Part shown: piece by piece, positions 3,364-56,841 of the stretch
Layout: every line of letters starts with the position of its first letter
Numbering within the stretch: position 1 is the first letter of the stretch
Assembly (NCBI GenBank): GCA_016186915.1
Contig: JACPKU010000004.1
Location: 67,168 to 131,167, forward strand
Origin: Candidatus Doudnabacteria bacterium
Lineage (GTDB): Bacteria > Patescibacteriota > Doudnabacteria > UBA920 > O2-02-FULL-48-8
Direction: 5' to 3'
DNA length: 64,000 nucleotides
Notes under the pieces: model-generated
Databases searched by the model: none
What the model was told of the DNA's origin: nothing
Seen by the model: only the letters and a program-made list of their open reading frames with translations
Program-made: the position numbers and the translations under genes

Positions 3364-4182
3364 ATGCCGGCAAAGATTATTGACAGCAGGCAAATTGCCC
3401 AAACTATTATTGAGCGGTTAAAAACAGAGGTCAGTAAATTAAATTTTCGGCCTTTGTTTTGCGATATTCTGGTGGGGAGCGATCCTGTCTCTCTGTCATT
3501 TGTCAAGCTCAAAGGAAAGAGAGCAGAGGAGATAGGCTTGGATTTTAAGATGATTCAACTTTCAGAAAACACGACCACCGAGCAGTTGATTGAACAGATT
3601 GAGCAACTGGGGCGTGAGCCGAACCTTAGCGGTTTAATTGTGCAGCTGCCTTTGCCTCCCCACATCGACCAAAAAAAAATTTTGGATTCAATTGATCCAA
3701 GCCTTGATGCGGACTGTCTAAGCGGACAGTCAAAACTTGTGCCGCCGACTGCGGGTGCGGTTTTGACCATCCTTGATTCTTTGGGTCTGGACTTGTCCAG
3801 CAAGCAAATTTTAGTGGTTGGGCAAGGAGAGCTGGTTGGCAAGCCTGTGAGCAAATTGTTAAAACAAAGGGGACTAAGCATTATGTCGGCAGACAGGGCC
3901 ACTAAAAATTTATCGAACTTGACCAGATCAGCCGATGTAATAATTTCCGGAGCCGGTCAGCCTGGGCTGATTAAGAAAAACTCAATTAAGGACGGTGCGG
4001 TTTTGATTGATGCGGGTACAGCGGATCAGGCCGGCGGGATTGTGGGGGATATAGATACTGCTTCGGTTTCGGAGAAGGCCTCATATATTTCAGCCACCCC
4101 GGGCGGAGTGGGGCCGGTGACTGTGGCTAAACTCTTGGAAAATGTGGTCAAACTTGCTAAGATGAAAAAGAAGTATGTATGA
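3364..4182 (+). CDS. folD: Bifunctional methylenetetrahydrofolate dehydrogenase/cyclohydrolase
   Basis: MPAKIIDSRQIAQ...ILVGSDPVS...LPLPPHID...ATPGGVGPVTVAKLLEN are FolD hallmarks. Start placed at ATG 3364 inside the listed ORF. Confidence 0.85.
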   Translation: MPAKIIDSRQIAQTIIERLKTEVSKLNFRPLFCDILVGSDPVSLSFVKLKGKRAEEIGLDFKMIQLSENTTTEQLIEQIEQLGREPNLSGLIVQLPLPPHIDQKKILDSIDPSLDADCLSGQSKLVPPTAGAVLTILDSLGLDLSSKQILVVGQGELVGKPVSKLLKQRGLSIMSADRATKNLSNLTRSADVIISGAGQPGLIKKNSIKDGAVLIDAGTADQAGGIVGDIDTASVSEKASYISATPGGVGPVTVAKLLENVVKLAKMKKKYV

Positions 4183-5134
4183 TTTGATAATCGTAGGAGG
4201 GGGAGTGAGCGCGTTTGCCGCCGCCCTGTTCGCTGGACGGCGAGGGCTTACGACCCTGGTGATTGCCAAAGACATCGGCGGGCAGGCAAATTTTACTGAT
4301 CTGATAGAAAACTACCCCGGGGTCAAAAGCATAGGCGGATATGAGCTAGTCAGCAAGATTAGAAAGCAAGCGGAAGAGTACGAGGTGGAAGTGTTGTCAG
4401 CCGAAGTTGGAAGTTTGAAGAGCGCTAATAAGGCGTTTGTCTTGACCGCATACGGCAAGCAATATAAAACTCAAACGGTGGTCTTGGCTTTTGGCAAAAC
4501 GCCGCGGGACCTGTCAGTTCCGGGGGAAGAAGAGTTCAAGGGCCGCGGAGTTTCATATTGTGCGAACTGCGATGCCCCGCTTTTTAAAAATAAGGCGGTA
4601 ACAGTGGCGGGCGTTGGAGATCTGAATTTAGAAGCTTGCTTGCTCTCTGCCAGATTCGCCAAAAAAGTTTACGTGCTATCTAAGACGGACAAGCTGACCG
4701 GACACCCGGCTCTTCTCAAAGCAGTAAAGACCAAGCAAAATATCGAGCTGATACCATTTGTCCAAATTTTGGAAATTCAGGGGCGAGAAAAACTGGAGGC
4801 TTTAAGATTGCAGGATTTGAAAACTGGCAAAGAAAAAGAACTGAAAACCGACGGACTGTTTGTGGAGCTGGGTTATGTGGTTAAATCCCAATTCTTGACA
4901 GGGCTGCTACAATTAGATAAGGAAGGACAAATAGTTGTAAATCAGGATCAATCCACTTCAGTTGCCGGTATTTTTGCCGCCGGCGACTGCACCAACCGGC
5001 CTTACAAACAAGCGGTTATCTCTGCCGGCGAAGGGGCAGCAGCTGGCATGGCGGCCTACGATTGGCTAATGCGCAAGCAAGGAGGCCGGGGCCTAACTTC
5101 TGACTGGACGGAAATAAAACGAGTTAAAAGTTAG
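4175..5134 (+). CDS. Thioredoxin-reductase-like FAD/NAD(P) disulfide oxidoreductase (paralog)
   Basis: N-terminal GxGxxA FAD motif (IIVGGGVSAFAAA) and CANC redox motif. Overall TrxB fold pattern. Confidence 0.65.
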   Translation: MYDLIIVGGGVSAFAAALFAGRRGLTTLVIAKDIGGQANFTDLIENYPGVKSIGGYELVSKIRKQAEEYEVEVLSAEVGSLKSANKAFVLTAYGKQYKTQTVVLAFGKTPRDLSVPGEEEFKGRGVSYCANCDAPLFKNKAVTVAGVGDLNLEACLLSARFAKKVYVLSKTDKLTGHPALLKAVKTKQNIELIPFVQILEIQGREKLEALRLQDLKTGKEKELKTDGLFVELGYVVKSQFLTGLLQLDKEGQIVVNQDQSTSVAGIFAAGDCTNRPYKQAVISAGEGAAAGMAAYDWLMRKQGGRGLTSDWTEIKRVKS

Positions 5135-5200
5135 TAAAGTTCTAAGTTCATAAAGTATAGGACTTTTTAAACTCAGAACTTAGAACCTAGAACTAAATCT

Positions 5201-6154
5201 ATGAATCACCACAAGCTCATTATAATCGGTTCGGGGCCAGCAGGATTGACTGCGGCCTTGTACGCGGCCAGGGCAGAACTCAAGCCTTTGGTTATTGCCG
5301 GTGTCACCTTTGGCGGACAGCTGATGACCACCACTGAGGTGGAAAATTTTCCGGGTTTTCCAGACGGCAGGCAGGGACCGGAACTCATGCAAGATATGGT
5401 TAAACAGGCAGAACGATTTGGCGCCCAGATGATTTATGATGATGCCATTAAGGTTGATTTTTCCGCCAAAGGCGGATCCGCCTCGGGCGGAAAGAATCAA
5501 CCGTTCAAAGTAGCCACTGGTGATAAGGAATTTACTGCCGACTCCGTAATCATTGCCACGGGCGCCACTTACAAATGGCTAGGTTTGCCCTCGGAGACCA
5601 AATATCGAGGCAAAGGAATTTCTGCCTGCGCCACATGCGATGGGTTTTTCTTCAAGGAGAAGGAGATAATCGTGGTGGGCGGCGGGGACGCGGCCATGGA
5701 AGAGGCTTTGTATCTGACCAAGTTTGCCAGTAAGGTTGTGATTCTTAATCGTACAGGAAAGCTTCGCGCGTCAAAAATTATGCAGGATCGGGTCAAGGCC
5801 AACAGCAAGATCAGCATTGAATACAATAAGCAAGTTGAAGAGTTTTTGGGAGGAGAGAAGCTTACCGGCGGCAAGATCAAGGATAGTGTCAGCGGCCAGG
5901 CGGATGAACGAAAATTTGACGGCGCGTTTATTGCCATAGGACACAAACCAAGCTCGGATATTTTCCGAGGCCAGATTGAGCTGGATGAAAAGGGGTTTGT
6001 AATACCGAAGGATCTGACGCGCACCTCGGTGGAGGGGGTGTTTGTAGCAGGCGATGTCCAGGATCACCGCTACCGCCAAGCCGTGACTGCCGCAGGATTG
6101 GGCTGTATGGCGGCTTTGGACGCGGAGAAGTATTTAGAAATGGACCATGGATAA
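5201..6154 (+). CDS. trxB: Thioredoxin reductase
   Basis: IIGSGPAGLTAALYAAR, CATCDGFFF redox-active motif, GGGDAAMEEALYLT NADPH site, AGDVQD. Carries an in-frame palindromic-element insertion encoding KGGSASGGK at 5463-5490. Confidence 0.85.
   Translation: MNHHKLIIIGSGPAGLTAALYAARAELKPLVIAGVTFGGQLMTTTEVENFPGFPDGRQGPELMQDMVKQAERFGAQMIYDDAIKVDFSAKGGSASGGKNQPFKVATGDKEFTADSVIIATGATYKWLGLPSETKYRGKGISACATCDGFFFKEKEIIVVGGGDAAMEEALYLTKFASKVVILNRTGKLRASKIMQDRVKANSKISIEYNKQVEEFLGGEKLTGGKIKDSVSGQADERKFDGAFIAIGHKPSSDIFRGQIELDEKGFVIPKDLTRTSVEGVFVAGDVQDHRYRQAVTAAGLGCMAALDAEKYLEMDHG
5463..5490. repeat. 28-bp GGATCC-centred palindromic element (ccgccaaaggcggatccgcctcgggcgg), in frame within trxB
   Basis: Near-perfect palindrome. 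Family members at 33673, 33744, 43853 and 47351. Confidence 0.8.
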
Positions 6155-6191: not shown

Positions 6192-7427
6192 GTGTCCAAG
6201 TTCAACGCTTTCGAAAATGCCATGCAGCAGCTGCGGACTGCGGCTAAAACCGCCAAAATAAGGCCGGATGTGTCGGAACGTCTGAAGCATCCGGATCGGG
6301 TTCTAAGCGTGAGCATTCCCGTGAAGATGGATGACGGCAGGATCAAAGTATTTGTAGGATACAGGTCGCAATACAACAATGCGCGCGGTCCGTACAAAGG
6401 TGGCTTGAGATTTCATCAAGATGTCGACTTAGACGAAGTAAAAGCTTTATCTTTCTGGATGGCCATCAAAAACGCCGTGGTCAATGTACCCTACGGCGGG
6501 GGCAAAGGCGGCATTACAGTTGATCCAAAACAATTATCCAAGCGAGAGTTGGAGCGATTATCCCGCGGATTTATCCAAAAGATTTACCGCAATATCGGCC
6601 CACACCTGGATGTGCCGGCCCCGGACGTAAACACCACGCCAGAAATTATGGCTTGGATGGTGGATGAATATTCCAAACTGGTGGGCAAATCAACCCCTGC
6701 GGTGATTACCGGCAAGCCGCTGAATAAAGGCGGTAGTCAGGGAAGGACAGAAGCCACTGGATACGGCGGGGTGGAGGTATTAAAAGAAGTTATCAAGGGG
6801 CAAGGGTTAAGGGGCAGGGGTCAAGGGGTGCGCGTAGCTATCCAAGGCTTTGGCAACGTTGGTTTGTATTTTGCTTTGTTTGCCCAAGCAGCAGGGTTCA
6901 AGGTAGTGGCTGTGTCTGATTCCAAATCAGGAATTTATAATCCCCAAGGCTTAGATATAAAAAAAATAAGCAAGTGGAAAGAAAAAAACCGCCAGCTGCG
7001 CGGCTTCCCGGGTGCAAAAAATGTTAGCAACGAAAAATTATTGGAATTGCCTGTGGACGTGTTAGTGCCAGCGGCGCTAGAAAATCAAATTCACAAAGCC
7101 AATGCCAGCAAGATCAAAGCCAAACTGATTATAGAAATGGCCAATGGTCCGACCACCCCCGAAGCGGATCTGATTTTGGCAAAACGCAAAATCTCTGTCG
7201 TGCCTGACGTGCTGTCCAACTCCGGCGGGGTTGCCACTTCTTATCTAGAATGGTATCAAAATCTGCATCAGCAAAAATGGAGCAAGGCTAAGGTCTTGAA
7301 ACGGTTGGAGAAGTTTATGGCACATGCATTTCGCGATGTCGCCAAGACTGCCAAGAAACATCGAACCACTTTGCGCAACGCCGCCTTCATCTTGGCTGTC
7401 CAGCGGATTGCCAAAGCCATGAAATAA
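6192..7427 (+). CDS. gdhA: Glutamate dehydrogenase (NAD(P)-specific)
   Basis: KGGLRFHQDVDLDEVKALSFWM...VPYGGGKGGI...GFGNVG are GDH signatures. GTG start. Confidence 0.85.
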   Translation: MSKFNAFENAMQQLRTAAKTAKIRPDVSERLKHPDRVLSVSIPVKMDDGRIKVFVGYRSQYNNARGPYKGGLRFHQDVDLDEVKALSFWMAIKNAVVNVPYGGGKGGITVDPKQLSKRELERLSRGFIQKIYRNIGPHLDVPAPDVNTTPEIMAWMVDEYSKLVGKSTPAVITGKPLNKGGSQGRTEATGYGGVEVLKEVIKGQGLRGRGQGVRVAIQGFGNVGLYFALFAQAAGFKVVAVSDSKSGIYNPQGLDIKKISKWKEKNRQLRGFPGAKNVSNEKLLELPVDVLVPAALENQIHKANASKIKAKLIIEMANGPTTPEADLILAKRKISVVPDVLSNSGGVATSYLEWYQNLHQQKWSKAKVLKRLEKFMAHAFRDVAKTAKKHRTTLRNAAFILAVQRIAKAMK

Positions 7428-8111: not shown

Positions 8112-8181
8112 AGGTCATGGATCACGTAACACGGAACAAAAATCAGGTGTTCAATGTTCTATGATATGTGTTATGTGATTT

Positions 8182-14153: not shown

Positions 14154-14245
14154 TTTATAACCCCTCCCAGCCTCCCCTTATGTTAAGGGGACGAGATTTT
14201 TTAAACCCCCTCTTAAATAAGAGGGGGTAGGGGGAGTTAAACTTC
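14154..14245. repeat. Modular G-tract/AT-loop hairpin repeat cluster
   Basis: Modules ttataacccctcccagcc, cctccccttatgttaagggga, ccccctcttaaataagaggggg, gggggagttaaacttc. Homologous copies at 19861-19995, 28777-28863, 43513-43635. Confidence 0.6.
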
Positions 14246-16418: not shown

Positions 16419-16567
16419 CGGAGAGATTTTCCAGCCTTCGCTAAAGCTTCGGCGGATCCGCCGGAGCCTTGTGCGGAGGCGGAGAACTCTCACGGACTTG
16501 CGTCCACACGCTCCTGCCTGTCCGCCGAAATTTCGATGAAGGCGGAAAGCTGCGCGCCCCGCACTAA
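16419..16567 (-). pseudogene. tRNA-Leu-like copy interrupted by palindromic insertions
   Basis: Aligns to tRNA-Leu(CAG) T-arm, variable arm and the 3' part of the anticodon arm. Has a ~50-nt insertion in the T-loop and a ~34-nt insertion replacing the 5' anticodon stem. Both insertions contain ccgcc/ggcgg hairpins. No matching 5' acceptor strand nearby. Confidence 0.3.
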
Positions 16568-16588
16568 ATTTTGCTTAGGATCATATTC

Positions 16589-16662
16589 TGGTGCTCGAGG
16601 GGAGAGTCGAACTCCCACGGCCTTGCGGCCATACGCTCCTGAAGCGTACGTGCCCCGCACCA
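16589..16662 (-). tRNA. 3' portion of a second type-II tRNA-Leu(CAG)-like gene
   Basis: Intact TACGC-TTCAGGA-GCGTA anticodon arm, GGCC-GCAA-GGCC variable arm, GGGAG-TTCGACT-CTCCC T-arm, acceptor 3' strand CTCGAGC-A-CCA. Lacks acceptor 5' strand and D-arm. The matching GCTCGAG + D-arm lies at 16790-16854, on the far side of the intact tRNA-Leu. Confidence 0.35.
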
Positions 16663-16681
16663 AAAGAGCTTAGTTTTGTCT

Positions 16682-16768
16682 TGGTGGGCACGGAGAGATT
16701 TGAACTCTCACGGGATTGCTCCCACACGCTCCTGAAGCGTGCGCGTATACCAGTTCCGCCACGTACCC
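16682..16768 (-). tRNA. tRNA-Leu (anticodon CAG), type II, 87 nt
   Basis: Manual fold: acceptor GGGTACG/CGTGCCC, D-arm, anticodon arm CACGC-TTCAGGA-GCGTG, long variable arm GGGA-GCAA-TCCC, T-arm GAGAG-TTCAAAT-CTCTC, encoded CCA. Confidence 0.75.
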
Positions 16769-16789
16769 ATGAATCTTTGGTGCGGGGTA

Positions 16790-16854
16790 AATCTGCCAGC
16801 CTGCCCCGTACCTCCCGCCAGGGCGGGATGGTACCGGGGTTCCACCACTCGAGC
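16790..16854 (-). other. tRNA 5'-half-like segment (acceptor GCTCGAG + D-arm) followed by a ggcgg palindrome
   Basis: GCTCGAG-TG-GTGG-AACCCCGGTA-CCAT, then CCCGCCCTGGCGGG, then ...TTTACCCCGCACC. The last piece is complementary to ggtgcgggg preceding the 3' portion at 16589-16662. Confidence 0.3.
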
Positions 16855-16939
16855 ATAGAAAAGAAGATTAGTGCGGGGTAAATCTGCCAGACGCGGCTAG
16901 ATTTATAGGGTATCACTAAATTCGTTTCGCCTCAACTGC

Positions 16940-19000: not shown

Positions 19001-20959
19001 TCAAAGCTTGGCTTTTATCTTCTCTGCCAAGGAGCGGCCTACTACATTGGAAAGTTCGGTCATGTTAGCAGCTTTTAAAGCCGCGACAGAGCCAAATTTA
19101 CTGAGTAGTTGTTTTTTCTTTTGTGGTCCGATTCCGGGGATAGTGTCCAAGCTGGATAAAAGTAGGGATTGGGATCGGAGTTTGCGGTGGAAGGTTACGG
19201 CGAATCGGTGCGCTTCGTCGCGAATGCGCTGAAGGAGAAACAAAGCAATGGAATTAGGGGGAAGGGTTAAGGGTTTAGGATGCCTAGGCAGAAATATTTC
19301 CTCCAAGCGTTTGGCTAGACCAATGATAGGAATTTTTGTTTTTTTATTGTAAATTGAAAATTGAGATTTGGAAATTGCCGCGATAGCGGCGTTAAGTTGC
19401 CCGCGACCGCCGTCAATGAGGATAAGGTCAGGCAAGGGCCAGGCTTTGTTCCGTGTTCCGTGATCCGTGCCGCCTTTGGCGAGCCTCGCCTCTGGCGGGA
19501 TCCGTGACCTGGAGAATCTCCTTTCCAGCATCTCGCGCATCATAGTGTAATCGTCGGGCGTGTGTTTGCTTCGGATCTTGAATCGCCGATAATCTTGTTT
19601 TTTGGGCCGTCCGTAATCAAATACTACCATTGAGCCGACAGGATTCATCCCTTGAACATTGGAAATATCATAGGCCTCGATTCGACCGGGCAATTTGGAT
19701 AAATTAAGCACGCGTTGCAATTCTTTAAGCGAAGCAAGCAGCCTGGCTTCTTCTAGCAGATTTTTATCACCAGTGCTTTCTAAGTACTGTTTGGCGTTTT
19801 CTGTGCCGAGTTGGATGAGCTTGAGCTTCTGGCCGCGGGATGGAACGAAGATTCGCGGACGTAACTCCCCCTCACCAGCTCTCGGCAGCCGGTGAGGTAG
19901 GGAATTTCCTCTTATACTAAGAGGGGGTTTTTTTGCAGCTACACCTCCCCTTATATTAAGGGGAGGCTGGGAGGGGTTATAACCCTGGGCTGGTAATAGA
20001 ATCTCCCTCGGCCAGCTACTCGCTTCCAAATAATATTTCGGCAGAAATTCATCTAAGATTTCTGCGGGTGTTGCTCCTTTGGTGTTTTTGAGAATAAAGT
20101 TTTCTTTTCTAATCAATTTGCCTTCCCGAATGAGAAATAAATTGATCGAGCCGAGACTGCCCGTAAGATAGAGACTAAAAATATCCTGATCAACTTTTTT
20201 CGGATACACCAGTTTTTGTTTTTCTAATACTCTATTAATAGTAAAGATCTGGTCTCGGATTCGCGCCGCTTTTTCATACTGTCTGTTTCTGCTTAGTTGG
20301 CTCATTTGGGATTTTAAATCGTCGAGCGTTTTTAGCTGCCAGCCGGATAAAAGTTGGACGATCTGATCAATAGCTTTTCGATACTCCGCCAAAGAAATTT
20401 TGCCGATACAGACACCCGGACACTTGCCAATGTGATAATAAAAACATGGCTTGGTGCCAACCTTGGAATTGGAGCAATAAGGAAAAATTTTACGGATCAA
20501 ACGCAAGGTTTGTTTGATGGAATAAGAGGATGTGTAAGGGCCTAAGTAGCGCGCCGATTTACCTGCCCGCCGTAGCTTTAGCGAAGGCGGGTCGGCAATT
20601 TTGCGCTCGAAGTCTATGGTCGGGATTTCGTCCTGGATATTGATTTTTATAAACTGAAAATTTTTGTCGTCTTTCAGCATCATATTGTATTTGGGCTGGA
20701 ATTCCTTGATGAAATTGTTTTCCAAAATCAGGCTTTCGGTTTCATTGTCTGTGATCACATAGCTTAGATCCCGGATTTGGCTGATCATCTGCTGAATCCT
20801 GTTTGATCTTGCTGGGTCGGGCTGGAAATAAGAACGGACTCGGTTTTTAAGCTTGTTGGCCTTGCCCACATACAAAATATCGCCAGCGGCGTTTTTGAAA
20901 ATATAGACGCCAGGTCTGGCTGGTAGTTGTTTGGTTTTTTGAGCCATGCTTTTGCGCAT
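19001..20959 (-). CDS. uvrC: Excinuclease ABC subunit C
   Basis: N-terminal GIY-YIG (PGVYIFKN..GDILYVGKA), UvrBC-interacting region, RNase H-like domain, C-terminal HhH (IPGIGPQKKKQLLSKFGS). Carries in-frame repeat insertions (19460-19489, 19861-19995, 20566-20591). Confidence 0.85.
   Translation of the reverse strand: MRKSMAQKTKQLPARPGVYIFKNAAGDILYVGKANKLKNRVRSYFQPDPARSNRIQQMISQIRDLSYVITDNETESLILENNFIKEFQPKYNMMLKDDKNFQFIKINIQDEIPTIDFERKIADPPSLKLRRAGKSARYLGPYTSSYSIKQTLRLIRKIFPYCSNSKVGTKPCFYYHIGKCPGVCIGKISLAEYRKAIDQIVQLLSGWQLKTLDDLKSQMSQLSRNRQYEKAARIRDQIFTINRVLEKQKLVYPKKVDQDIFSLYLTGSLGSINLFLIREGKLIRKENFILKNTKGATPAEILDEFLPKYYLEASSWPREILLPAQGYNPSQPPLNIRGGVAAKKPPLSIRGNSLPHRLPRAGEGELRPRIFVPSRGQKLKLIQLGTENAKQYLESTGDKNLLEEARLLASLKELQRVLNLSKLPGRIEAYDISNVQGMNPVGSMVVFDYGRPKKQDYRRFKIRSKHTPDDYTMMREMLERRFSRSRIPPEARLAKGGTDHGTRNKAWPLPDLILIDGGRGQLNAAIAAISKSQFSIYNKKTKIPIIGLAKRLEEIFLPRHPKPLTLPPNSIALFLLQRIRDEAHRFAVTFHRKLRSQSLLLSSLDTIPGIGPQKKKQLLSKFGSVAALKAANMTELSNVVGRSLAEKIKAKL
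19460..19489. repeat. CCGCC..GGCGG palindromic element variant in frame in uvrC
   Basis: ccgcctttggcgagcctcgcctctggcgg encodes RLAKGGTDHG in UvrC. Confidence 0.6.
19861..19995. repeat. Modular G-tract hairpin repeat cluster in frame within uvrC
   Basis: cccctcaccagctctcggcagccggtgaggtaggg, cctcttatactaagaggggg, cctccccttatattaaggggagg, gggaggggttataaccc. Encodes ~45 aa (..PPLNIRGGVAAKKPPLSIRGNSLPHRLPRAGEGELRP..) without stops. Confidence 0.65.
20566..20591. repeat. CCCGCC-gtagctttagcgaa-GGCGGG hairpin element in frame in uvrC
   Basis: Encodes PPSLKLRRAG. A related loop motif, gaagctttagcg, occurs at 9399-9422 and 16436-16460. Confidence 0.55.
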
Positions 20960-27848: not shown

Positions 27849-27954
27849 TTTTAGCACTTGACCCAGCCTTCGCCCTATGGGCTTCGGCGGGCGGGACTCG
27901 GAATATTTATATCTGATAATTAGCGTTATCTATGGAATTGACTTTAGTTACCTC

Positions 27955-27981
27955 TTAGCACTTGACAGGGTAGAGTGCCAA
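27955..27981. promoter_or_regulatory. CIRCE operator 1 (TTAGCACTT-N9-GAGTGCCAA) overlapping a TTGACA-17-TATAAT promoter
   Basis: Matches the CIRCE consensus TTAGCACTC-N9-GAGTGCTAA. Promoter at 27962-27990. Confidence 0.7.
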
Positions 27982-28001
27982 ATATATAATGTTAAGTACG
28001 G

Positions 28002-28776: not shown

Positions 28777-28863
28777 GCCCCCTCTTAGAATAAGAGGGGG
28801 ATAGGGGGAGTTAGATTCAGAGGATTATAACCCCTCCCAACCTCCCCTTATATTAAGGGGAGG
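28777..28863. repeat. Modular G-tract hairpin repeat cluster
   Basis: ccccctcttagaataagaggggg, gggggagttagattc, ttataacccctcccaacc, cctccccttatattaaggggagg. Confidence 0.6.
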
Positions 28864-28874
28864 AGAATACGAAT

Positions 28875-33428: not shown

Positions 33429-34613
33429 ATGGCTGAGGACTATTATTCAATTTTGGGTGTTGCCAAAACCGCAACCGCAGAAGAGATTAAGAAAGCTTAC
33501 AGAAAATTGGCACACAAGCATCATCCGGACAAAGGTCAAGGCGGGGATCCTGAAAAATTCAAACAGGCCAGTGAAGCTTATCAGGTTTTATCCAACGCAG
33601 AGACGCGGGGCCAGTATGACCAGTTTGGCACGACTTTCGAACAGGCTCGCAGGCAAGGTTACGGTGGTTTTTCCGCCAAAGGCGGACCAGCCTCTGGCTG
33701 GGATTTTTCTGATTTTATGCGCGGCTTCGATTTTGGCGATTTTTCCGCCGGAGGCGGATCCGCCTTTGGCGGAGAAGATGCCTTTGATATTTTTTCCGGG
33801 ATTTTTGGCGGCCAAGCTACGGGCAGACGACCGCGCAGAGCGCGGGGCGTGGATCTGGAGATGGAGCTGGATATTACTTTTGACGAGGCAGTATTTGGCG
33901 TGGCAAAAAAGATTAAGCTTGAAAAAAAAGACAAATGCTCCGCTTGCGAAGGGTCTGGAGCAAGGCCTGGGAGCAAGATTGTTACTTGTGCCAGATGTCA
34001 CGGCACCGGACAAATCCGAACGCATCGTCGAACAATTCTTGGACAAATTGCCCAAGTCAGTGTATGTGACCAATGCGATGGCAGCGGCAAGGTGGCCGAA
34101 GAAGCATGTCAGGAGTGTGACGGGAGCGGCATAGTCAGAAAAGAGAAAACACTGGAGGTGAAAATTCCGGCTGGGGTGGATAATGGTACCAGAATCAGAA
34201 TCAGCAACGAGGGCGAGGCTGGATACAAAGGGTCAAGTCCCGGCGATTTGTATTTACGGCTTAATGTGGCGCCGCATCCGGAATTCAAACGGGAAGGCCA
34301 AGATATCTATTTGGAAATTCCCATCAGTTTTTACCAGGCCGCGCTTGGCACCACCATTGAGGTGCCAACCATTGATGGCAGAGTTAGTTTGAAGATCCCG
34401 GCCGGCACGCAATCCGGCAAGGTTTTCCGGCTGAAAAATAAAGGAGTGGTAAAAGTGAACGGGTCTTCTCGCGGCGAGCAATATGTAACGGCCAATGTCG
34501 TTACCCCGGCCAAGCTTACCAAGAAAGAAAAAGAATTGTTCAAACAACTGGCAGAAGAAAACGGCGAGACTGTCGACGTGGATGAGAGTCTCTGGTCTAA
34601 ATTCACAAGCTAA
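33429..34613 (+). CDS. dnaJ: Chaperone DnaJ
   Basis: J domain (HPD: KHHPDK), G/F region, four CxxCxGxG zinc-finger repeats, C-terminal substrate-binding domain. G/F region contains two copies of the 28-bp palindromic element. Confidence 0.85.
33673..33701. repeat. 28-bp palindromic element (degenerate copy) in frame in dnaJ
   Basis: ccgccaaaggcggaccagcctctggctgg. Confidence 0.6.
33744..33771. repeat. 28-bp palindromic element in frame in dnaJ
   Basis: ccgccggaggcggatccgcctttggcgg encodes [11 protein letters not shown]. Confidence 0.8.
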
Positions 34614-39128: not shown

Positions 39129-39707
39129 TTACAGTTTGATTTTTGATGCTTGATTTTTGATTTCTATAATCGTTCTTTTCACGGTATCATAAATCACAGG
39201 CAATTCCAGATAATCGATAAGGATGGCCAGCCAGGCCACGGCCGCGTGCCACTGAAAGATCCCTTCGTATTGCGTAAAATGCTCGATGACGACTTCATCC
39301 GTAATCCAGAGAATATGCAGCCATTGGATATTGATAAACAAAAGGTAAAGAAAATTTTTCGCAGTAAATTTTTCGCGCAAAAAGTGGAGGTATAATATAG
39401 AGGTGCTGATAATGGCCGGGATTTCGCTGTAATCAAGGAACGTAGAAACCGCGCCCCAAAAAGACGGGAACACGAAATAGCTGGTTCCGGTCAGACGAAG
39501 CAGAACTACGTCGGTAAACAGCCAATAAAGGTGGAAAATTTGAATAAAAAATAAAAGTGTGGTTGCAGTGAGCACCAGCGTATAATTATTTTGATACCAA
39601 GCCCAGAATTTTTGGAACATCAAGTTTTTTAACAGATCGTCACTCCGCCTGAGGCGGATCGCGATGGTTATAACTAATATCATCATACCATGAAAGAGCG
39701 TCTGCAA
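39129..39707 (-). CDS. Hypothetical membrane protein
   Basis: Multi-TM ORF. Contains a 13-bp ccgcctgaggcgg palindrome near its 5' end. Confidence 0.4.
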   Translation of the reverse strand: MQTLFHGMMILVITIAIRLRRSDDLLKNLMFQKFWAWYQNNYTLVLTATTLLFFIQIFHLYWLFTDVVLLRLTGTSYFVFPSFWGAVSTFLDYSEIPAIISTSILYLHFLREKFTAKNFLYLLFINIQWLHILWITDEVVIEHFTQYEGIFQWHAAVAWLAILIDYLELPVIYDTVKRTIIEIKNQASKIKL

Positions 39708-42918: not shown

Positions 42919-44034
42919 ATGAATCGAGGATTTTGGGATAAGTTAACTAAACCAATAATGATTTTGGCGCCTATGGCCAATGTCACTGATTTTGCATTTC
43001 GTAAAATGATTGCGCAATACGGCAAGCCAGATGTAATGTGGACAGAGTTTGTGTCAGTTGATGGCTTGTGTTCGCCAGGCAAGGAGAGGCTGATGATTGA
43101 TTTGAAATATTCAGAAATTGAACGGCCAATTGTCGCCCAATTTTTTGGGAGCAAACCAGAAAATTTTTATAAGTGTGCTCAACTTGCACAAGAACTTAAA
43201 TTTGACGGCATAGATATCAATATGGGTTGCCCTGACAAGTCAGTGGAAAAGCAAGGCGCTGGGGCGGCACTGATGAAAAACCCAAAATTAGCTAAAGAGA
43301 TAATTTTAGCTACTCAAGAAGGTGCGGGAGAGTTGCCAGTTTCTGTCAAAACACGTCTTGGATACAACAAGATTGATTTTGAAGACTGGCTACCGACATT
43401 GTTTGAGGCCAAACCTGCAGCCGTAATTTTTCATCTGCGAACGCGCAAAGAGATGTCTAAGGTGCCGGCGCATTGGGAAGTGATGCCGGAAATAATGAGC
43501 CTTATTGGGGCTTCCCCCCTTGAAACAAGGGGGGAAAGAGGGGGGTTAGAGGCAAAGCCCTCTGATCTAACTCCCCCTACCCAGCTCTCGGCAGCTGGTG
43601 AGGTAGGGGACTTCTCTTATTCTAAGAGGGGGTTTAGCGCTCCATTGATTCTTGGCAATGGGGATGTGATGAGTTTGCAGCAAGGAATAGAAAAATGCGC
43701 GCAGACAGGTGCAGACGGCGTAATGTTTGGCAGAGGGATTTTTGGCAATCCGTGGTTGTTTAACAGAGAGATTAGGGTTGAGGGATTAGAGATTAGAGAC
43801 AAACTCAAGGTCATGATTGAGCATACCAAGCTGTTCGAAAAGACTTTTATATCCGCCAGAGGCGGACCCGCCTCTGGCGGGAAGAGCTTTGAAGTGATGA
43901 AGAAGCACTACAAAGCCTATGTCAACAATTTCGAGGGCGCGAAGGAATTGCGGGCGGAGTTGATGGAAGGAGCGTCCACAGCCCAAGACGTAGAAAGAAT
44001 AGTCAAGAATTTTTTACTTGCGGATCAAAAGTAG
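42919..44034 (+). CDS. dus: tRNA-dihydrouridine synthase
   Basis: ILAPMANVTDFAFR...IDINMGCP TIM-barrel Dus motifs. Contains a ~40-aa repeat-derived insertion (43513-43635) and a palindromic element (43853-43880). Confidence 0.8.
   Translation: MNRGFWDKLTKPIMILAPMANVTDFAFRKMIAQYGKPDVMWTEFVSVDGLCSPGKERLMIDLKYSEIERPIVAQFFGSKPENFYKCAQLAQELKFDGIDINMGCPDKSVEKQGAGAALMKNPKLAKEIILATQEGAGELPVSVKTRLGYNKIDFEDWLPTLFEAKPAAVIFHLRTRKEMSKVPAHWEVMPEIMSLIGASPLETRGERGGLEAKPSDLTPPTQLSAAGEVGDFSYSKRGFSAPLILGNGDVMSLQQGIEKCAQTGADGVMFGRGIFGNPWLFNREIRVEGLEIRDKLKVMIEHTKLFEKTFISARGGPASGGKSFEVMKKHYKAYVNNFEGAKELRAELMEGASTAQDVERIVKNFLLADQK
43513..43635. repeat. Modular G-tract hairpin repeat cluster in frame within dus
   Basis: cccccttgaaacaagggggg, ggggggttagag..ctctgatctaactcccc, ctacccagctctcggcagctggtgaggtagggg, ctcttattctaagaggggg. 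Confidence 0.65.
43853..43880. repeat. 28-bp palindromic element in frame in dus
   Basis: ccgccagaggcggacccgcctctggcgg encodes SARGGPASGGK. Confidence 0.8.
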
Positions 44035-46335: not shown

Positions 46336-48600
46336 TCATTCTTTTGTAAAATCACAATCTTTATTACTGCATTTGATAACCCCGTCTTTGGCAAAGATTA
46401 ATAGATCGCCAGACTTCGGGCATTTTTCGCCCGTGGGTTTAGTGGGCAAACTGAATTTACATTTTGGATAGCGAGAGCAGGAATAAAAGATGCCGCGCTT
46501 GCTTCTTCGCTCCACCAGCTCGCCTTCTCCGCAAACCGGGCAAGCAACGCCTGTGGTTTTTTCAATTTTTTTGATGTTCTTGCATTCCGGATAGCCGGTG
46601 CAGCCGAGGAAAGACCCGAACCGGCCAAACTTTACGGCCATGGGGCGGCCGCATTTGTCGCAAACCTCGCCTTTGTTCTCATCAATGATTTTTTGCTCCT
46701 CTGGCATGGGCCTGGTGAACTTGCATTCCGGATAGTTGGAGCAGGCAATGAATTTGCCAAACCGCCCGAATTTTATAACCAGCGGATGCCCGGAGTCTGG
46801 GCATTTTTCATCCAGGGTTTCCACGTGTTTTTCCACGGTTGTTTCTTTTTGCTTTAGGTTCTCATGAAAAGGGCTATAAAATTCTTTTATCACCGGCACC
46901 CATTGCTTGTTGCCTGCGGCAATTTCGTCCAAGCTCTCTTCCATGCCTGCGGTAAATTGGTAATCTACGATTTTGGGAAAATGCTCCACCAAAATATCAT
47001 TGACGATGAATCCCATTTCCGAAGGATGAAATTTTTTGTCAATCTTATGCACGTAGTCGCGGTCCTGGATGGTGCTGATTGTCGGCGCATAAGTGGAAGG
47101 CCGGCCAATGCCATATTCTTCCATTGTCTTAATTAAGCTTGCATCAGTGAACCTTGGGGGCGGCTGGGTAAAATGCTGTTTGGGCAAAATCTTGACCACT
47201 TTGGGTTTATCGCCTTTATTAAGTTGGGGCAATAATCCCTCTTCCTCCTCTTCGCCATTTTCTTCGTCTTTGCCTTCCAGATAGACTTTCATAAAGCCGT
47301 CAAATTTTATAATCTGCCCAGTGGAGCGGAAAATGTAAGCTTTTTCTTTCCCGCCGGAGGCGGGTCCGCCTTTGGCGGATATTTCCGTGTCCACTGAAGT
47401 TGCGTCAAACAAAGCCTCAGGCATTTGCGTGGCGATTGTTCGTTTCCAGATAAGCTCATAAAGCCGATATTGATTGCGGTCCAAATACTGTTTTATGCTT
47501 TCCGGATCCCGAGTTAGATCTGTGGGCCGGATGGCTTCGTGGGCTTCCTGGGCGTTTTTGCTTTTCGATGCGAACTGGCGCGGCCGGTCCAAAAGATAAT
47601 CCTTGCCATAACGCTGACTGATCGCAGACTTGGCTGATTGCAGGGCAAAGTCAGAAAGATTAACTGAATCAGTACGCATATAGGTAATTAAGCCCGTGGC
47701 TTCATCTTCCCCCAATTCCACGCCTTCGTAGAGTTGCTGGGCGTACATCATGGTTTGTTTGGCACTAAAGCCCAATTTACGGGCGGCTTCCTGCTGCATG
47801 GTGGAGGTGATAAAAGGCGCGGCCGGCGTTCTTTTGACTTCTTTTTTGTTGACCTCAACTACTTGGGCAGGATAGCTGGCAAGATCGGATAAAATCTTTT
47901 TGGCTTGGATCTCGTTTTTGATTGCCAGTTTGTCCAAATTTTTTCCATCAACTTTCGCAAGCTTGCCTAAGAAATTGCTGTCTTTATGGAAAGTGGCGAT
48001 AATGCTCCAGTATTCTTCAGGCTTGAATTTTTGGATTTCTTTTTCGCGTTCTACAATTAAGCGCACTGCCACTGACTGCACGCGGCCAGCGGAAAGCCCG
48101 CGTTTGACTTTTTTCCACAAGAAAGGCGAGAGTTCATAGCCGACTAATCGATCAAGCACGCGCCTTGCTTGCTGGGCATCCACCAAGTGCAGATCTAACT
48201 CACGCGGATTTTTTAAAGCCTCCTCAATCGCCGACTTAGTAATTTCGTGAAAAGCAATGCGTTTTATTTTGGGATTTGGGATTTGGGATTTGGGATTTTC
48301 CAAGCCGAGTGCTTGGATAAGGTGCCACGCGATGGCTTCGCCTTCGCGGTCTTCGTCTGTGGCGAGGATTATTTCTGGCGCGTCTTTAGCTAATTTTTTA
48401 AGCTCTGCGATTTTCTTTTTGGCTTTGGGCGGGACCAGGTAAGTCGGTTCAAAATCATGCTCAATATCAATCCCCATTTTGCTGGTGGGCAAATCGCGGA
48501 TATGGCCAAACGAGGCCTCCACCTTGTATTGACCATCCAGAAAACGCGAAATGGTTTTCGCCTTGGTGGGAGATTCAACGATGACTAAAGATTTAGGCAT
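46336..48600 (-). CDS. topA: DNA topoisomerase I
   Basis: TOPRIM N-terminus (SLVIVESPTKAKTI), catalytic region, multiple C-terminal C4 zinc ribbons. Carries an in-frame palindromic element (47351-47378) and a tandem heptamer tract (48271-48298). Confidence 0.9.
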   Translation of the reverse strand: MPKSLVIVESPTKAKTISRFLDGQYKVEASFGHIRDLPTSKMGIDIEHDFEPTYLVPPKAKKKIAELKKLAKDAPEIILATDEDREGEAIAWHLIQALGLENPKSQIPNPKIKRIAFHEITKSAIEEALKNPRELDLHLVDAQQARRVLDRLVGYELSPFLWKKVKRGLSAGRVQSVAVRLIVEREKEIQKFKPEEYWSIIATFHKDSNFLGKLAKVDGKNLDKLAIKNEIQAKKILSDLASYPAQVVEVNKKEVKRTPAAPFITSTMQQEAARKLGFSAKQTMMYAQQLYEGVELGEDEATGLITYMRTDSVNLSDFALQSAKSAISQRYGKDYLLDRPRQFASKSKNAQEAHEAIRPTDLTRDPESIKQYLDRNQYRLYELIWKRTIATQMPEALFDATSVDTEISAKGGPASGGKEKAYIFRSTGQIIKFDGFMKVYLEGKDEENGEEEEEGLLPQLNKGDKPKVVKILPKQHFTQPPPRFTDASLIKTMEEYGIGRPSTYAPTISTIQDRDYVHKIDKKFHPSEMGFIVNDILVEHFPKIVDYQFTAGMEESLDEIAAGNKQWVPVIKEFYSPFHENLKQKETTVEKHVETLDEKCPDSGHPLVIKFGRFGKFIACSNYPECKFTRPMPEEQKIIDENKGEVCDKCGRPMAVKFGRFGSFLGCTGYPECKNIKKIEKTTGVACPVCGEGELVERRSKRGIFYSCSRYPKCKFSLPTKPTGEKCPKSGDLLIFAKDGVIKCSNKDCDFTKE
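47351..47378. repeat. 28-bp palindromic element in frame in topA
   Basis: ccgccggaggcgggtccgcctttggcgg encodes [10 protein letters not shown]. Confidence 0.8.
48271..48298. repeat. Perfect tandem heptanucleotide repeat (gggattt)x4 inside topA
   Basis: Read directly. Encodes PKSQIPNPK on the coding strand. Confidence 0.85.
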
Positions 48601-49884: not shown

Positions 49885-50976
49885 TCATCGTATCTTAACA
49901 TATTTGGCGCCGCCTAAATTTTTTACGCGGCCCTTTAATTCCAACAAGCTTAAGGTAGCATTGATTTCGCTAACGGGCAATTTTACTTGTTTGACCAGAT
50001 CGTCAATGTGGATTGGCTCGCGCGTTAAATTCAAGAGCAGTTGGCTTTCCTGATCCGTGGTTGCCAGCGGCTCGGTTTCAGTAAGAACCTGAACATCCAA
50101 ATTCAGCTCTTCAAAAATGTCCTGCGCCGTACTGACTAGTTTTGCCCCTTGTTTAATGAGTTTGTTAGTGCCGCGGCTGGTCGGTGAAAAGATCGAGCCG
50201 GGAATGGCGAACACTTCTCGGCCTTGTTCCAGAGCATAGTTGGCTGTGATAAGTGCGCCGCTTTCTTCATCCGCTTCGATTACCAAGACGCCAATGCTTA
50301 AACCAGAAATCAGCCGGTTGCGGATCGGGAAGTTTTGTTTTTGGACATTTGAATTCAGCGCGTATTCAGAAACCAGACAGCCTTTTTCGGCAACTTCCTG
50401 GGCAAGATTGAAATTTGATCTAGGCGAGATGCTGTTATCCTGTAAATCAGAAGCCAGGATGGCCACTGGTTTGGCACCTGCATTGAGGCAGGCGTGTAAA
50501 GAGAAAGCATCCACGCCAAAAGCCAGACCGGAAATAATGTTGAGGCGGCTTTGTGCCAGGGCTGTCACAATCTCTTCGATTGCCTGTCTGCCGTATTGAC
50601 TGATTTTTCTGCTTCCCACCACTGCAATCCCGGTTTTAGACAAAACTTTTTTATCACCTCTTACATATAACAACGGTGGCGGAGTTGTGATTTCTTTCAG
50701 CAGGGCAGGATATTCAGATTCTAAAATGGTAACCATTTCTATCTTTTGTATCAATAGATCTTCCCAAGCTTTTCCCGGATTGATTCCGGGTTGTTTGGAC
50801 TTGACCGCGTCAATGGTTTTTTGATCGAGCTGGGCCTGGTTCAATTCAAAAGCTGAAGCTTCCCACGCAGTTTTATAATCTCCGAAATAATTTAATAAGC
50901 GCGTGAGTTTAACAGCACCCAGTTCAGGGATGAGGTTCAGGGCGTTGCCGTAGATTTTGTTCTTTGTTTCTGGCAT
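49885..50976 (-). CDS. dprA: DNA-processing protein DprA (Smf)
   Basis: Rossmann-like DprA core (IAVVGSRKISQYG...GLAFGVDAFSLHACLNAG..VAILASDL). C-terminal winged helix. Confidence 0.85.
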   Translation of the reverse strand: MPETKNKIYGNALNLIPELGAVKLTRLLNYFGDYKTAWEASAFELNQAQLDQKTIDAVKSKQPGINPGKAWEDLLIQKIEMVTILESEYPALLKEITTPPPLLYVRGDKKVLSKTGIAVVGSRKISQYGRQAIEEIVTALAQSRLNIISGLAFGVDAFSLHACLNAGAKPVAILASDLQDNSISPRSNFNLAQEVAEKGCLVSEYALNSNVQKQNFPIRNRLISGLSIGVLVIEADEESGALITANYALEQGREVFAIPGSIFSPTSRGTNKLIKQGAKLVSTAQDIFEELNLDVQVLTETEPLATTDQESQLLLNLTREPIHIDDLVKQVKLPVSEINATLSLLELKGRVKNLGGAKYVKIR

Positions 50977-51008
50977 TTAATTTGTGAGGGAGGTTGATAA
51001 GGAGCTGT

Positions 51009-51038: not shown

Positions 51039-51039
51039 A

Positions 51040-56825: not shown

Positions 56826-56841
56826 CCCGTTAGATTTTCTT

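Follow-up and report, generated by a model that had tools for sequence, protein, structure and literature searches.

A 30-bp, GC-rich double-hairpin repeat occurs five times, in frame, within trxB, dnaJ, dus and topA of the 64-kb stretch of DNA analysed here (hereafter, the window), and, on comparison with orthologous sequences, these copies are insertions into housekeeping genes. The repeat is far more widespread than one genome. We consider it probable that it represents a miniature, non-autonomous double-hairpin repeat that behaves similarly to Rickettsia palindromic elements (RPEs) and REP sequences and is kept in genes as a flexible surface loop. A preliminary description of this DNA had supposed such behaviour to be undocumented, and we likewise found no published description of the repeat in the searchable literature, where matches to the core sequence came from cloning primers alone.

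Copies and hairpins in the window

A search of the window with CCGCCNNNGGCGGNNCCGCCNNNGGCGG, allowing up to 3 mismatches, returned five 28-bp matches, at 5463-5490, 33673-33700 (2 mismatches), 33745-33772, 43853-43880 and 47351-47378, versus 0 expected, as none of 100 dinucleotide-preserving shuffles of the window gave a match. The chance-level count that the preliminary description had named as grounds for abandoning its proposal was thus not borne out in the window (5 versus 0 in shuffles). That description had placed the same five in-gene copies with an error of no more than 1 nt (its 33744-33771 in dnaJ should read 33745-33772) and had described them as in-frame elements encoding Gly/Ser/Ala-rich peptides; the peptides it quoted are present in the translations, and Pfam confirms the host genes. 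All five copies are translated as S-A-x-G-G-S/P-A-x-G-G, and the antisense ORFs at 5180-5500, 33588-34073 and 43786-43986, which had been attributed to the repeat, do read it as SA.GGSA.GG. A position-weight-matrix scan of the window for weaker copies recovered the same five and nothing further. Copy density is approximately 1 per 13 kb (5 in 64 kb), and the window copies showed no consistent placement with respect to genes or operons. The relevant features are as follows.

5201..6154, plus strand: trxB (thioredoxin reductase, 317 aa), Pfam Pyr_redox_2, E = 4e-48
5462..5491, unstranded: trxB copy, TCCGCCAAAGGCGGATCCGCCTCGGGCGGA, aa 88-97, exact pattern match
16451..16462, unstranded: repeat core GGCGGATCCGCC in an intergenic CCGCC/GGCGG hairpin cluster adjoining tRNA-like copies
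19470..19498, unstranded: variant palindrome CCGCCTTTGGCGAGCCTCGCCTCTGGCGG, 29 bp, in uvrC, part of the 18-aa insert PEARLAKGGTDHGTRNKA
33429..34613, plus strand: dnaJ (394 aa), Pfam DnaJ, DnaJ_CXXCXGXG and DnaJ_C
33672..33701, unstranded: degenerate dnaJ copy, G/F region, 2 mismatches to the pattern
33744..33773, unstranded: intact dnaJ copy, G/F region, exact pattern match
39645..39657, unstranded: lone single hairpin CCGCCTGAGGCGG, possible half-element
42919..44034, plus strand: dus (tRNA-dihydrouridine synthase, 371 aa), Pfam Dus
43852..43881, unstranded: dus copy, intact, exact match, encodes SARGGPASGG
46336..48600, minus strand: topA (topoisomerase I, 754 aa), Pfam Toprim, Topoisom_bac and Zn_ribbon_Top1
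47350..47379, unstranded (gene on minus strand): topA copy, intact, exact match, aa 408-417

The repeat core is CCGCC-NNN-GGCGG-RY-CCGCC-NNN-GGCGG, and the conserved unit spans 30 bp (T, the 28-bp core and A), usually preceded by T-rich sequence on its 5' side and followed by A-rich sequence on its 3' side (consensus tTtT-CCGCC..GGCGG-AaAa). This unit consists of two inverted 13-nt hairpins, with a single long hairpin as the alternative fold. Calculated hairpin energies range from -12 to -17 kcal/mol as DNA and from -20 to -28 kcal/mol as RNA (z-scores -3.4 to -5.8), the most stable RNA hairpin reaching -27.6 kcal/mol. In most copies the two 3-nt loops are non-complementary, which gives the repeat a polarity, and the assumption of a perfect palindrome was accordingly rejected; in the dus copy the arms are complementary throughout, loops included. 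The long-hairpin model was also rejected, as the loops show no covariation (a mean of 1.55 complementary positions observed versus 1.64 in permutations). Double changes within the repeat match small-hairpin pairing in 4 Watson-Crick cases and 1 G-T case, and the long hairpin in none. In the degenerate dnaJ copy the second hairpin, CAGCC/GGCTG, is a compensatory double change, and both 6-bp hairpins still fold. The DNA of the intact dnaJ copy agrees with the family at 20/20 fixed positions.

Shorter relatives of the repeat had been proposed in the preliminary description. Hairpins with a CCGCC/GGCGG stem and a loop of 6-20 nt are indeed enriched in the window (13 versus 0.98 expected), including those at 14267, 16458, 16522, 35533 and 51295, and are candidate relatives, but the sequence at 27873-27900 does not fit; only the hairpin around 16451 has the GGCGGATCCGCC core in common with the 30-bp repeat. 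The variant palindrome in uvrC probably belongs to the repeat family, and the insert that contains it is missing from T. maritima UvrC. Rfam identified three tRNAs and no other family in the entire window. A CRISPR repeat was discounted, as the window copies are solitary and the sole close pair, 72 bp apart, lies within the dnaJ coding sequence. We also noticed that dus holds a second, unrelated repeat insert of ~70 nt at 43568-43635 (repeat families D14 and D18); its product is 371 aa in the window compared to 323-336 aa in most relatives.

Insertion sites in relatives and distribution across genomes

The clearest evidence for insertion derives from trxB, the product of which has a 100% identical counterpart in a Candidatus Doudnabacteria metagenome-assembled genome. 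In the closest relative (L121) the site reads GATTTT|AAAACG, compared to GATTTT-[30 bp]-AAGAAT in the window, representing an exact 30-bp insertion (TCCGCC..GGCGGA) with no target duplication. This was the only empty and filled pair that could be resolved unambiguously at the nucleotide level. Among the 120 closest TrxB homologs, 70 are 307 aa in length, 10 aa shorter than the 317-aa window protein, and one homolog (P0079) carries an insert at another codon, after ..TEIF, on peptide-level evidence. Two syntenic relatives, L122 and L124, lack the topA and dnaJ copies (topA in both, the degenerate dnaJ copy in L124). Each window copy is lacking in related orthologs, a comparison that the preliminary description had proposed. 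DnaJ of L124 is 9 aa shorter at the intact dnaJ copy, although the alignment there is ambiguous because the native region is already Gly/Phe-rich. The topA insert is missing at this codon in 119 of the 120 closest homologs, and the TopA homolog P0161 carries the same DNA palindrome within that hairpin loop but shifted downstream by 3-4 residues.

Most relatives are uninserted at the dus site (..GEHKNF..). An intact palindrome is present at the same codon as in the window in L122, L123 and L131, a half-element of the same single-hairpin form as the lone window hairpin at 39645..39657 in L124, and a 6-aa single-hairpin remnant in a subclade of Dus relatives; another Dus homolog (P0310) carries the same DNA palindrome near its N-terminus. 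A decay series was seen at both the dus and topA sites. From these independent insertions at other codons we infer that the repeat is mobile. Scans of metagenome contigs returned no match to either the empty or the filled trxB junction, and neither an excision product nor within-population polymorphism for presence or absence of the repeat was found. The preliminary description had also proposed mapping the inserts onto structures to look for surface loops, and two of them fall in gaps against solved structures, a 10-aa gap for trxB against thioredoxin reductases and a gap of ~10 aa for topA against topoisomerase I. In the AlphaFold2 model of TrxB the insert forms a low-confidence coil flanked by strands 82-86 and 102-106, and pLDDT drops under 50 over residues 91-98.

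A scan of one genome per species detected the repeat in at least 120 DNA stretches. By the labels in their records, those listed belong to CPR, Omnitrophota, PVC, Chloroflexota, Ignavibacteria/Bacteroidota and other groups. The carriers originate from many laboratories and span over 100 independent assemblies, among them a single-cell genome (L007) and 1.6 Mb contigs (L045 and L109). Host genes outside the window, named from ORF translations rather than domain searches, include UvrA, AspRS, ComEC, PGK, DnaE, RecG, NifS/IscS and proteins with type IX secretion tails. A phage vector was rejected, as just 4 matches were found among 2.9 million viral contigs.

The reading frames of 116 copies from other genomes, with AT, AC or GT at the centre, were compared among the matches listed; high-GC matches (Actinomycetota and similar, with other centres) were set aside as chance matches. 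Among these listed matches, the Ala-x-Gly-Gly (AxGG) frame accounted for 42 of the 48 copies in ORFs of at least 900 nt, with 2 in the PPxA and 4 in the RxxR frame, and frames were called even in ORFs shorter than 600 nt, which are probably non-coding (22 AxGG, 15 PPxA and 17 RxxR). CPR copies among the matches listed were in long ORFs in 33 of 53 cases, 30 of these 33 being AxGG, and PVC and Omnitrophota copies among the same matches were mostly in short, probably non-coding ORFs. In window genes no more than roughly one target motif in two coincides with a codon boundary, and target availability alone was rejected as the source of the frame bias, with 42/48 being higher than expected (p = 1e-7). 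Real genes do hold PPxA or RxxR copies, recG of L033 and nifS/iscS of L092 being examples named from ORF translations.

Coding copies among the matches listed also favoured the K/E..S over the G/R..F orientation (27 versus 10, p = 0.008), which argues that the insert peptide is made. We infer that the insert is translated and nearly neutral. Inserts were always a multiple of three in length and contained no stop codons, and with a unit of 30 nt the reading frame is never shifted. Moreover, the AxGG frame is self-mirroring, so that either orientation yields the same peptide backbone. The orientation independence put forward in the preliminary description therefore stands with respect to the backbone, but the palindrome on which it was founded is imperfect and has a polarity.

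Origin and maintenance of the repeat

No transposase was identified by Pfam in the 26 window ORFs scanned, nor was a RAYT. The search for neighbouring genes covered up to 8 kb around each listed copy; when the 1320 ORFs of the 120 listed loci were clustered all against all, no recurrent neighbour family emerged, RAYT or otherwise, the largest cluster spanning 4 loci. A pair of twin copies in L009 that might have formed a composite transposon proved to be two copies of a larger, ~180-bp intergenic repeat. In place of a transposase, the Pfam-scanned window ORFs yielded just a small GIY-YIG protein (52815-53153).

Under the explanation that we consider probable, the repeat would enter A/T-rich sites (TTT|AAR or ATA|AAR) without target duplication, through an enzyme encoded elsewhere than beside the copies. 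Insertion between codons, in either orientation, would add a flexible Gly/Ser/Ala linker, and other insertions would be purged by selection. In compact, mostly coding CPR genomes, survivors would be those in the AxGG frame, in surface loops or hairpin turns; in larger genomes, such as those of PVC and Omnitrophota, copies would persist chiefly in short, probably non-coding ORFs. Ageing copies would change by substitution or by a deletion of ~15-18 nt, plausibly slippage between internal direct repeats, leaving a single hairpin that might end as an ordinary protein loop.

The conservation of the stems fits less well. Across four dus lineages with ~63-75% protein identity, GCC/GGC codons are kept at every stem position, a constancy with a chance of ~1e-8 given codon usage elsewhere in the same genes; four-fold degenerate stem positions are invariant, while background third-position identity is 0.34-0.49. 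A purely selfish, neutral repeat should decay at synonymous sites, and this counts against our preferred explanation. Such perfect dus stems require recurrent hot-spot insertion, gene conversion, or selection on a DNA or RNA hairpin. There are 118 perfect copies and just 19 degenerate ones, at loci that were ascertained through a perfect copy. In addition, unless machinery has spread horizontally or a function is shared, it is difficult to see why 28 bp should be identical across phyla, and the occurrence of this sequence in many labelled phyla with no linked gene points to an unrecognised mechanism of mobilisation or maintenance.

In a second account, which we regard as rather unlikely, the repeat would be more than selfish DNA: a cross-phylum cis-element written by an unrecognised trans-acting system, maintained by hairpin selection or by copy-correction from other copies, and evolved to have a self-mirroring frame. 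CPR, Omnitrophota, PVC and further uncultivated lineages would have this trans-acting system in common, with a hairpin-specific nuclease or ligase, or competence- or recombination-linked machinery, as candidates, and the Gly/Ser frame would let the repeat colonise essential genes of gene-dense genomes.

Less likely still is that the repeat is a functional cis-acting site under selection, its benign frame making its presence in genes tolerable. Such a site could be a DNA-uptake signal for the competence machinery that CPR bacteria rely on, the target of a conserved dimeric DNA-binding protein, or an RNA hairpin that influences mRNA processing. The invariance of four-fold degenerate stem positions in four diverged dus lineages, the predominance of perfect copies and the double changes that fit the small hairpins (4 Watson-Crick and 1 G-T, versus 0 for the long hairpin) are consistent with this idea, as is a single sequence common to many phyla; parS and CIRCE are conserved protein-binding sites that recur across many phyla. 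Also in keeping with it, one window product is pilin-like and bears an N-terminal methylation motif, and a putative DprA gene lies at 49885-50976, by synteny with L122 and L124 (where Pfam detects DNA_processg_A). However, the copies originate as 30-bp insertions rather than substitutions, their presence is lineage-specific even between close orthologs, and they follow no positional pattern relative to window genes or operons. Their density of ~1 per 13 kb is also well under the ~1 per kb of known uptake sequences, which are confined to a species or family, unlike this repeat.

Selection for the Gly/Ser/Ala decapeptide itself, as a hinge or a modification or recognition site, with the DNA palindrome incidental, appears very unlikely. 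It would account for the strong frame and orientation biases and for the repeated hits on the same TopA and Dus loops. However, selection at the protein level would not fix particular synonymous codons, and the hosts are functionally unrelated proteins; furthermore, many copies, chiefly from PVC and Omnitrophota, lie in short, probably non-coding ORFs with no frame preference, others are intergenic, and the PPxA and RxxR copies of recG (L033) and nifS/iscS (L092) would not encode it.

We find it harder yet to credit that the 30 nt are untranslated, being excised from the transcript or skipped during decoding, in the manner of the GC-rich byp inserts of Magnusiomyces mitochondria or the T4 gene 60 hop. 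Although the RNA hairpin is highly stable (to -27.6 kcal/mol) and the byps derived from mitochondrial GC clusters offer a precedent, skipping would render frame and orientation irrelevant, so the frame bias (42/48) and the preference for the hydrophilic orientation (27 versus 10) among the matches listed oppose it, as do lengths that are always a multiple of three, the lack of stop codons, and decayed remnants that remain as ordinary codons. Finally, the view that there is no real feature, only look-alike native loops, cloning contamination from Gly-Ser linkers and BamHI sites, or assembly error, draws on the presence of GGCGGATCCGCC in published cloning primers and linkers and on the Gly/Phe-rich native G/F region of DnaJ, but is effectively refuted by 0 matches expected by chance, by unrelated genes that share identical DNA at loop positions where orthologs have none, by recovery from over 100 independent assemblies (single-cell L007 and the 1.6 Mb contigs L045 and L109 among them), and by consistently in-frame insertions and decay intermediates.

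If the repeat is a mobile double-hairpin element tolerated as a loop, it may give a concrete origin, in DNA, to a part of the short inserts that are specific to lineages of CPR proteins, with a life cycle, from insertion through single-hairpin remnant to ordinary loop, by which selfish DNA yields new loops in conserved enzymes. It would amount to a natural linker cassette that works in either orientation and leaves the frame intact, and the sites where it sits may show where essential enzymes (TrxB, TopA, Dus, UvrA, DnaE and others) can accommodate 10 additional residues. The repeat also explains recurrent annotation noise, including spurious antisense ORFs and 'hypothetical proteins' with SA.GGSA.GG, PPxADPPxA or RxRRIRLxR strings.

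Comparison with known systems

DNA uptake sequences (the DUS of Neisseria and USS of Pasteurellaceae) are 9-12 bp long and specific to a lineage; they occur at ~1 per kb and originate through substitutions. Like the repeat, they are over-represented short motifs that also occur in coding sequence in frames giving tolerated peptides, and dependence on DNA uptake is supposed for the host lineage of the repeat; in contrast, the repeat is a 30-bp insertion found at ~1 per 13 kb and common to many phyla. Mitochondrial GC clusters, Allomyces double-hairpin elements and Magnusiomyces byps, compared here by description, are also short GC-rich palindromic or double-hairpin units, and they occupy A/T-rich insertion sites, including coding regions, by a mobility mechanism that is not known. 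However, these are organellar. Ribosomes skip byps during decoding, whereas for the repeat the frame and orientation biases are indirect evidence of translation. A MITE was rejected, given the lack of duplication at the resolved trxB site and a unit of 30 bp; MITEs are 50-500 bp, with IS-derived terminal inverted repeats and a target-site duplication.

REP and REPIN sequences are mobilised by RAYT tyrosine transposases, which are related to IS200/IS605. The repeat is a stem-loop-forming, GC-rich imperfect palindrome of their 20-40 bp class, and it shares with them the frequent arrangement as inverted doublets and the lack of target duplication. Certain REPs are reported within genes, those for replication and repair in particular (PMC3733652). 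The repeat differs in lacking a GTAG or CGTC terminal tetranucleotide and in having a doublet of just 28 bp. REPs are predominantly extragenic; among the matches listed, CPR copies of the repeat lie mostly in long ORFs (33 of 53) and PVC and Omnitrophota copies mostly in short ones. RAYT genes are often flanked by REPs, and no RAYT was found in the 26 window ORFs scanned or around the 120 listed loci.

RPEs are roughly 100-150 bp with palindromic ends and are confined to Rickettsia; they were reportedly described by Ogata et al. in 2000. Both they and the repeat are dispersed palindromic repeats, found intergenically and in frame within functional protein-coding genes, at tolerated parts of proteins, with orthologs that do or do not carry the insert and no known transposase. 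In-frame insertion into functional ORFs, lacking in orthologs, was likewise found for the repeat. RPEs bear a CGTC tag (PMC3733652). No CGTC was found at either end of any of the 5 window copies, and the repeat further differs in being a 30-bp double hairpin present in many phyla, compared to ~100-150 bp in Rickettsia only, and in that a single self-mirroring frame accounts for its orientation-independent coding. The likeness to RPEs drawn in the preliminary description thus holds for the behaviour of a dispersed in-frame palindrome, but fails for length and the CGTC tag: the repeat works like an RPE and is not a member of that family, being set apart by these two features.

In-frame copies of the element and evidence for their insertion

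Five matches to CCGCCNNNGGCGGNNCCGCCNNNGGCGG were detected in the 64-kb window with up to three mismatches allowed, and none in 100 dinucleotide-preserving shuffles of the window. All five lie in genes identified with Pfam, upholding the preliminary description of in-frame palindrome copies in trxB, dnaJ, dus and topA.

Element copies (pattern matches) and their host ORFs (Pfam)
5201-6154, plus strand: thioredoxin reductase (trxB)
5463-5490: element copy in trxB
33429-34613, plus strand: DnaJ
33673-33700: element copy 1 in dnaJ, 2 mismatches
33745-33772: element copy 2 in dnaJ
42919-44034, plus strand: tRNA-dihydrouridine synthase (dus)
43853-43880: element copy in dus
46336-48600, minus strand: topoisomerase I (topA)
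47351-47378: element copy in topA

The element is a real, clearly non-random feature, read in every host gene as S-A-x-G-G-S/P-A-x-G-G. This AxGG frame is its own reverse complement, and the three antisense ORFs named earlier give the same reading, as their translations confirmed. The window's TrxB and Dus match proteins of a Candidatus Doudnabacteria MAG (CPR/Patescibacteria), encoded on a 134,948-bp contig, with 100% identity.

Comparison with orthologs and known structures indicated that the copies in trxB, topA, dnaJ and dus are insertions, given that relatives lack the element at these sites. TrxB is 307 aa long in 70 of the 120 nearest homologs versus 317 aa in the window, and the closest homolog (80% identity), from the syntenic locus L121, has the junction GTAGATTTT/AAAACGAAG where the window reads GTTGATTTT-TCCGCCAAAGGCGGATCCGCCTCGGGCGGA-AAGAATCAA, an exact 30-bp insertion without target duplication. 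Solved TrxR structures have a 10-residue alignment gap opposite the trxB copy, and in the AlphaFold model the insert is a coil, predicted with low confidence, that connects strands 82-86 and 102-106. The topA copy likewise lies in a gap relative to solved topoisomerase I structures; L122 and L124, both syntenic relatives, lack it, and no other close homolog carries it at the same codon. Both dnaJ copies are absent from L124, and the dus site is a short loop (..GEHKNF..) in most relatives.

In other lineages, the element has inserted independently at other positions of the same genes: in TrxB P0079 (SAKGGSGSAGK after ..TEIF, peptide level only), in TopA P0161 (TCCGCCAAAGGCGGATCCGCCTCCGGCGGA, within the same hairpin loop but shifted 3-4 residues downstream) and close to the N-terminus of Dus P0310. 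Relatives of P0161 retain 5-7-residue remnants (e.g., SAKSG, SAKGG, AASGGAG), while a large Dus subclade has HLPLGGK at the dus site, encoded in L124 by the single hairpin CTGCCC-CTG-GGCGG. The alignment places this state 18 nt shorter, as would result if a deletion had run from one internal direct repeat of the element to the other. These TopA remnants and HLPLGGK are decay products of the element. Additionally, the TrxB homolog P0012, from another lineage, carries a different 14-aa insert, LPAPEAAGNGGQAS, in the same beta-hairpin turn (window 5462-5491), a loop in which inserts land recurrently.

Distribution, target site and reading frame

One genome per species was scanned with the element centre left unconstrained, and the pattern matched at least 120 stretches of DNA, whose lineages were assigned from record titles. 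The matches listed include CPR (Kaiser-, Lipton-, Magasanik-, Moran-, Campbell-, Doudna-, Saccharibacteria and others), Omnitrophota (one a single-cell genome), Kiritimatiellae, Planctomycetota, Verrucomicrobiota, Lentisphaerae, Ignavibacteria and Bacteroidota (including 1.6 Mb contigs), Chloroflexota, and MAGs labelled Gammaproteobacteria; viral contigs almost lack the element (4 matches). The centre is AT (GGATCC) in 87 of the 127 copies among these matches and AC or GT in 29. The 11 with other centres, nearly all from genomes of 60-78% G+C, look like chance matches and were set aside.

In Ignavibacteria/Bacteroidota, the element lies within sequences that read as type IX secretion C-terminal sorting domains (L045 6022, L065 391, L109 2839; also L060 1103), and three of these genomes share its position (SA.GGSA.GG between [VI][QE]F and [DN]), suggesting that it either passed from one paralogous domain to another or met a target hot spot. 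In the Kiritimatiellae MAG L009, the palindrome lies within an intergenic repeat of ~180 bp (4569-4752 and 6390-6572, two copies 1821 bp apart) that also holds a CATTCCGAGCGTAG.. hairpin motif.

The element's flanks are T-rich 5' and A-rich 3' (consensus tTtT and AaAa), in agreement with the pre-existing TTTT/AAAA at the empty trxB site, and therefore represent a target preference outside the insert. Among the 116 listed copies with AT, AC or GT centres, the AxGG, PPxA and RxxR frames are used by 42, 2 and 4 copies in ORFs of at least 900 nt, and by 22, 15 and 17 in ORFs below 600 nt. Among the matches listed, the majority of CPR copies are in long ORFs (30 of 33 in the AxGG frame), and the majority of PVC and Omnitrophota copies in short, probably non-coding ORFs with no frame preference. 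The AxGG excess is real, since target-like motifs in window genes fall at codon boundaries in only about half of cases (excess over target availability, p = 1e-7). Coding copies in other frames are rare (recG in L033, nifS/iscS in L092; genes named from ORF translations). In the Omnitrophota recG (L033, ~3667-3731) two copies are adjacent; the first has one mismatch and uses the PPxA frame, the second uses AxGG (..SPPKAGPPTAEVVPAEGGSAYGG..).

The common loop pairs AGA/TTC, AAA/TCC and AAA/TCT are not complementary at the middle position, which rules out a perfect palindrome and means that copies have polarity. In genes, the K/E..S orientation outnumbers G/R..F (27 versus 10, p = 0.008). The frame and orientation biases are as expected from selection on a translated peptide, and they disfavour removal or bypass of the insert.

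Folding, proposed mobility and the dus palindrome

Each copy has two alternative folds, one 12-15 bp hairpin or two 6-bp hairpins, with folding energies between -12 and -17 kcal/mol for DNA and between -20 and -28 kcal/mol for RNA (z-scores -3.4 to -5.8). No covariation was found between the two loops. In degenerate copies, double changes restoring Watson-Crick pairs, small in number, were seen four times for the small hairpins, including the window dnaJ copy (CAGCC/GGCTG), and never for the long hairpin.

A Pfam scan of 26 window ORFs detected no transposase, no protein family recurred within up to 8 kb around copies, and the element bears no GTAG or CGTC tag; with target duplication also lacking, the element is therefore non-autonomous. 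The only nuclease-like ORF without an assigned role among the window ORFs scanned encodes a small stand-alone GIY-YIG nuclease-domain protein (52815-53153, minus strand, 112 aa), and no association with the element was seen. In the best-supported account, the element would be mobilised by a factor acting in trans and would enter A/T-rich sites, where its length of 30 nt prevents a frameshift; copies would persist only where the Gly/Ser/Ala reading falls in a tolerant loop, and would then slowly decay.

At the dus site, a perfect palindrome is kept in four lineages (window, L122, L123 and L131; ~63-75% protein identity). The preceding Ile codon varies (ATA, ATC, ATC, ATT), identity at the other four-fold sites of the dus genes is only 34-49%, and outside the element no more than 20-52% of their Ala and Gly residues are encoded by the stem codons GCC and GGC, so that perfect stems in all four would occur by chance about once in 1e8. 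Either a hot-spot codon is hit repeatedly, or copies correct one another, or selection acts on the hairpins. A functional reading of the element, which we consider improbable, is kept alive by this palindrome. Its wide distribution and its maintained hairpins deserve further pursuit.

Other repeats of the window and comparison with known elements

Further features of the window
14267, 16458, 16522, 20567, 21328, 35533, 51295: CCGCC/GGCGG hairpins (stem plus 6-20 nt loop)
16682-16768, minus strand: tRNA-Leu
19001-20959, minus strand: uvrC

Several other repeat-derived in-frame inserts were observed in uvrC. Its 18-aa insert PEARLAKGGTDHGTRNKA, missing in T. maritima UvrC, comprises a 29-bp variant palindrome (19470-19498) and GGATCACGGAACACGGAACAAA (19445-19469), which occurs between genes as well (8116-8140). 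A CCTCCCCTTATATTAAGGGGAGG unit (19928-19986) recurs intergenically at 14155-14196 and 28821-28866, and the hairpin at 20567-20590 matches that at 16431-16455. A ~70-nt unit, TAACTCCCCCT..CAGCTCTCGGCAGC..GGTGAGGTAGGG..CTCTTAT.CTAAGAGGGGGTTT, lies in frame in uvrC (19862-19930) and dus (43568-43635), with 89-95% identity, and is a second intragenic repeat family unrelated to the 30-bp element. CCGCC/GGCGG-stem hairpins with 6-20 nt loops are ~13-fold enriched in the window (13 observed versus 0.98 expected) and may form one superfamily with the element; ACAAG follows those at 14267 and 35533.

After tRNA-Leu lie a degenerate tRNA-like copy (16592-16669; 26.8 bits, under Rfam's gathering score) and a third, partial copy (16484-16516) flanked by GGCGGATCCGCC-type hairpins, and partial duplicated copies adjoin tRNA-Val (56842-56918; region 56680-57066). 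The copies by tRNA-Leu (16430-16900) and tRNA-Val could be remnants of integration events. A gene-free stretch of ~650 nt (50977-51632) has many hairpins and a terminal A9G9 run, and Rfam gave no match to it even with E values as high as 1 allowed. The CIRCE-like inverted repeat TTAGCACTTGAC-N-GAGTGCCAA (27850-27990), upstream of hrcA-grpE-hsp20-dnaK (named from ORF translations), is an ordinary heat-shock operator.

No published description of the element or its core sequence was found in the literature searched, which covers few subscription journals, and an earlier description in print is possible. The lack of target duplication and the size set the element apart from MITEs, its low density and lack of lineage specificity from uptake sequences, and the missing GTAG tag from REP/RAYT systems, no RAYT having been seen among the 26 scanned window ORFs or around the copies. 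The earlier interpretation of dispersed in-frame palindromic insertions behaving like Rickettsia palindromic elements (RPEs) proved essentially right; the likeness holds for behaviour, but does not extend to length or to the CGTC tag of RPEs. An organellar resemblance is provided by mitochondrial GC clusters and double-hairpin elements, and in behaviour the element is most like RPEs and REPs lying inside genes (PMC3733652).
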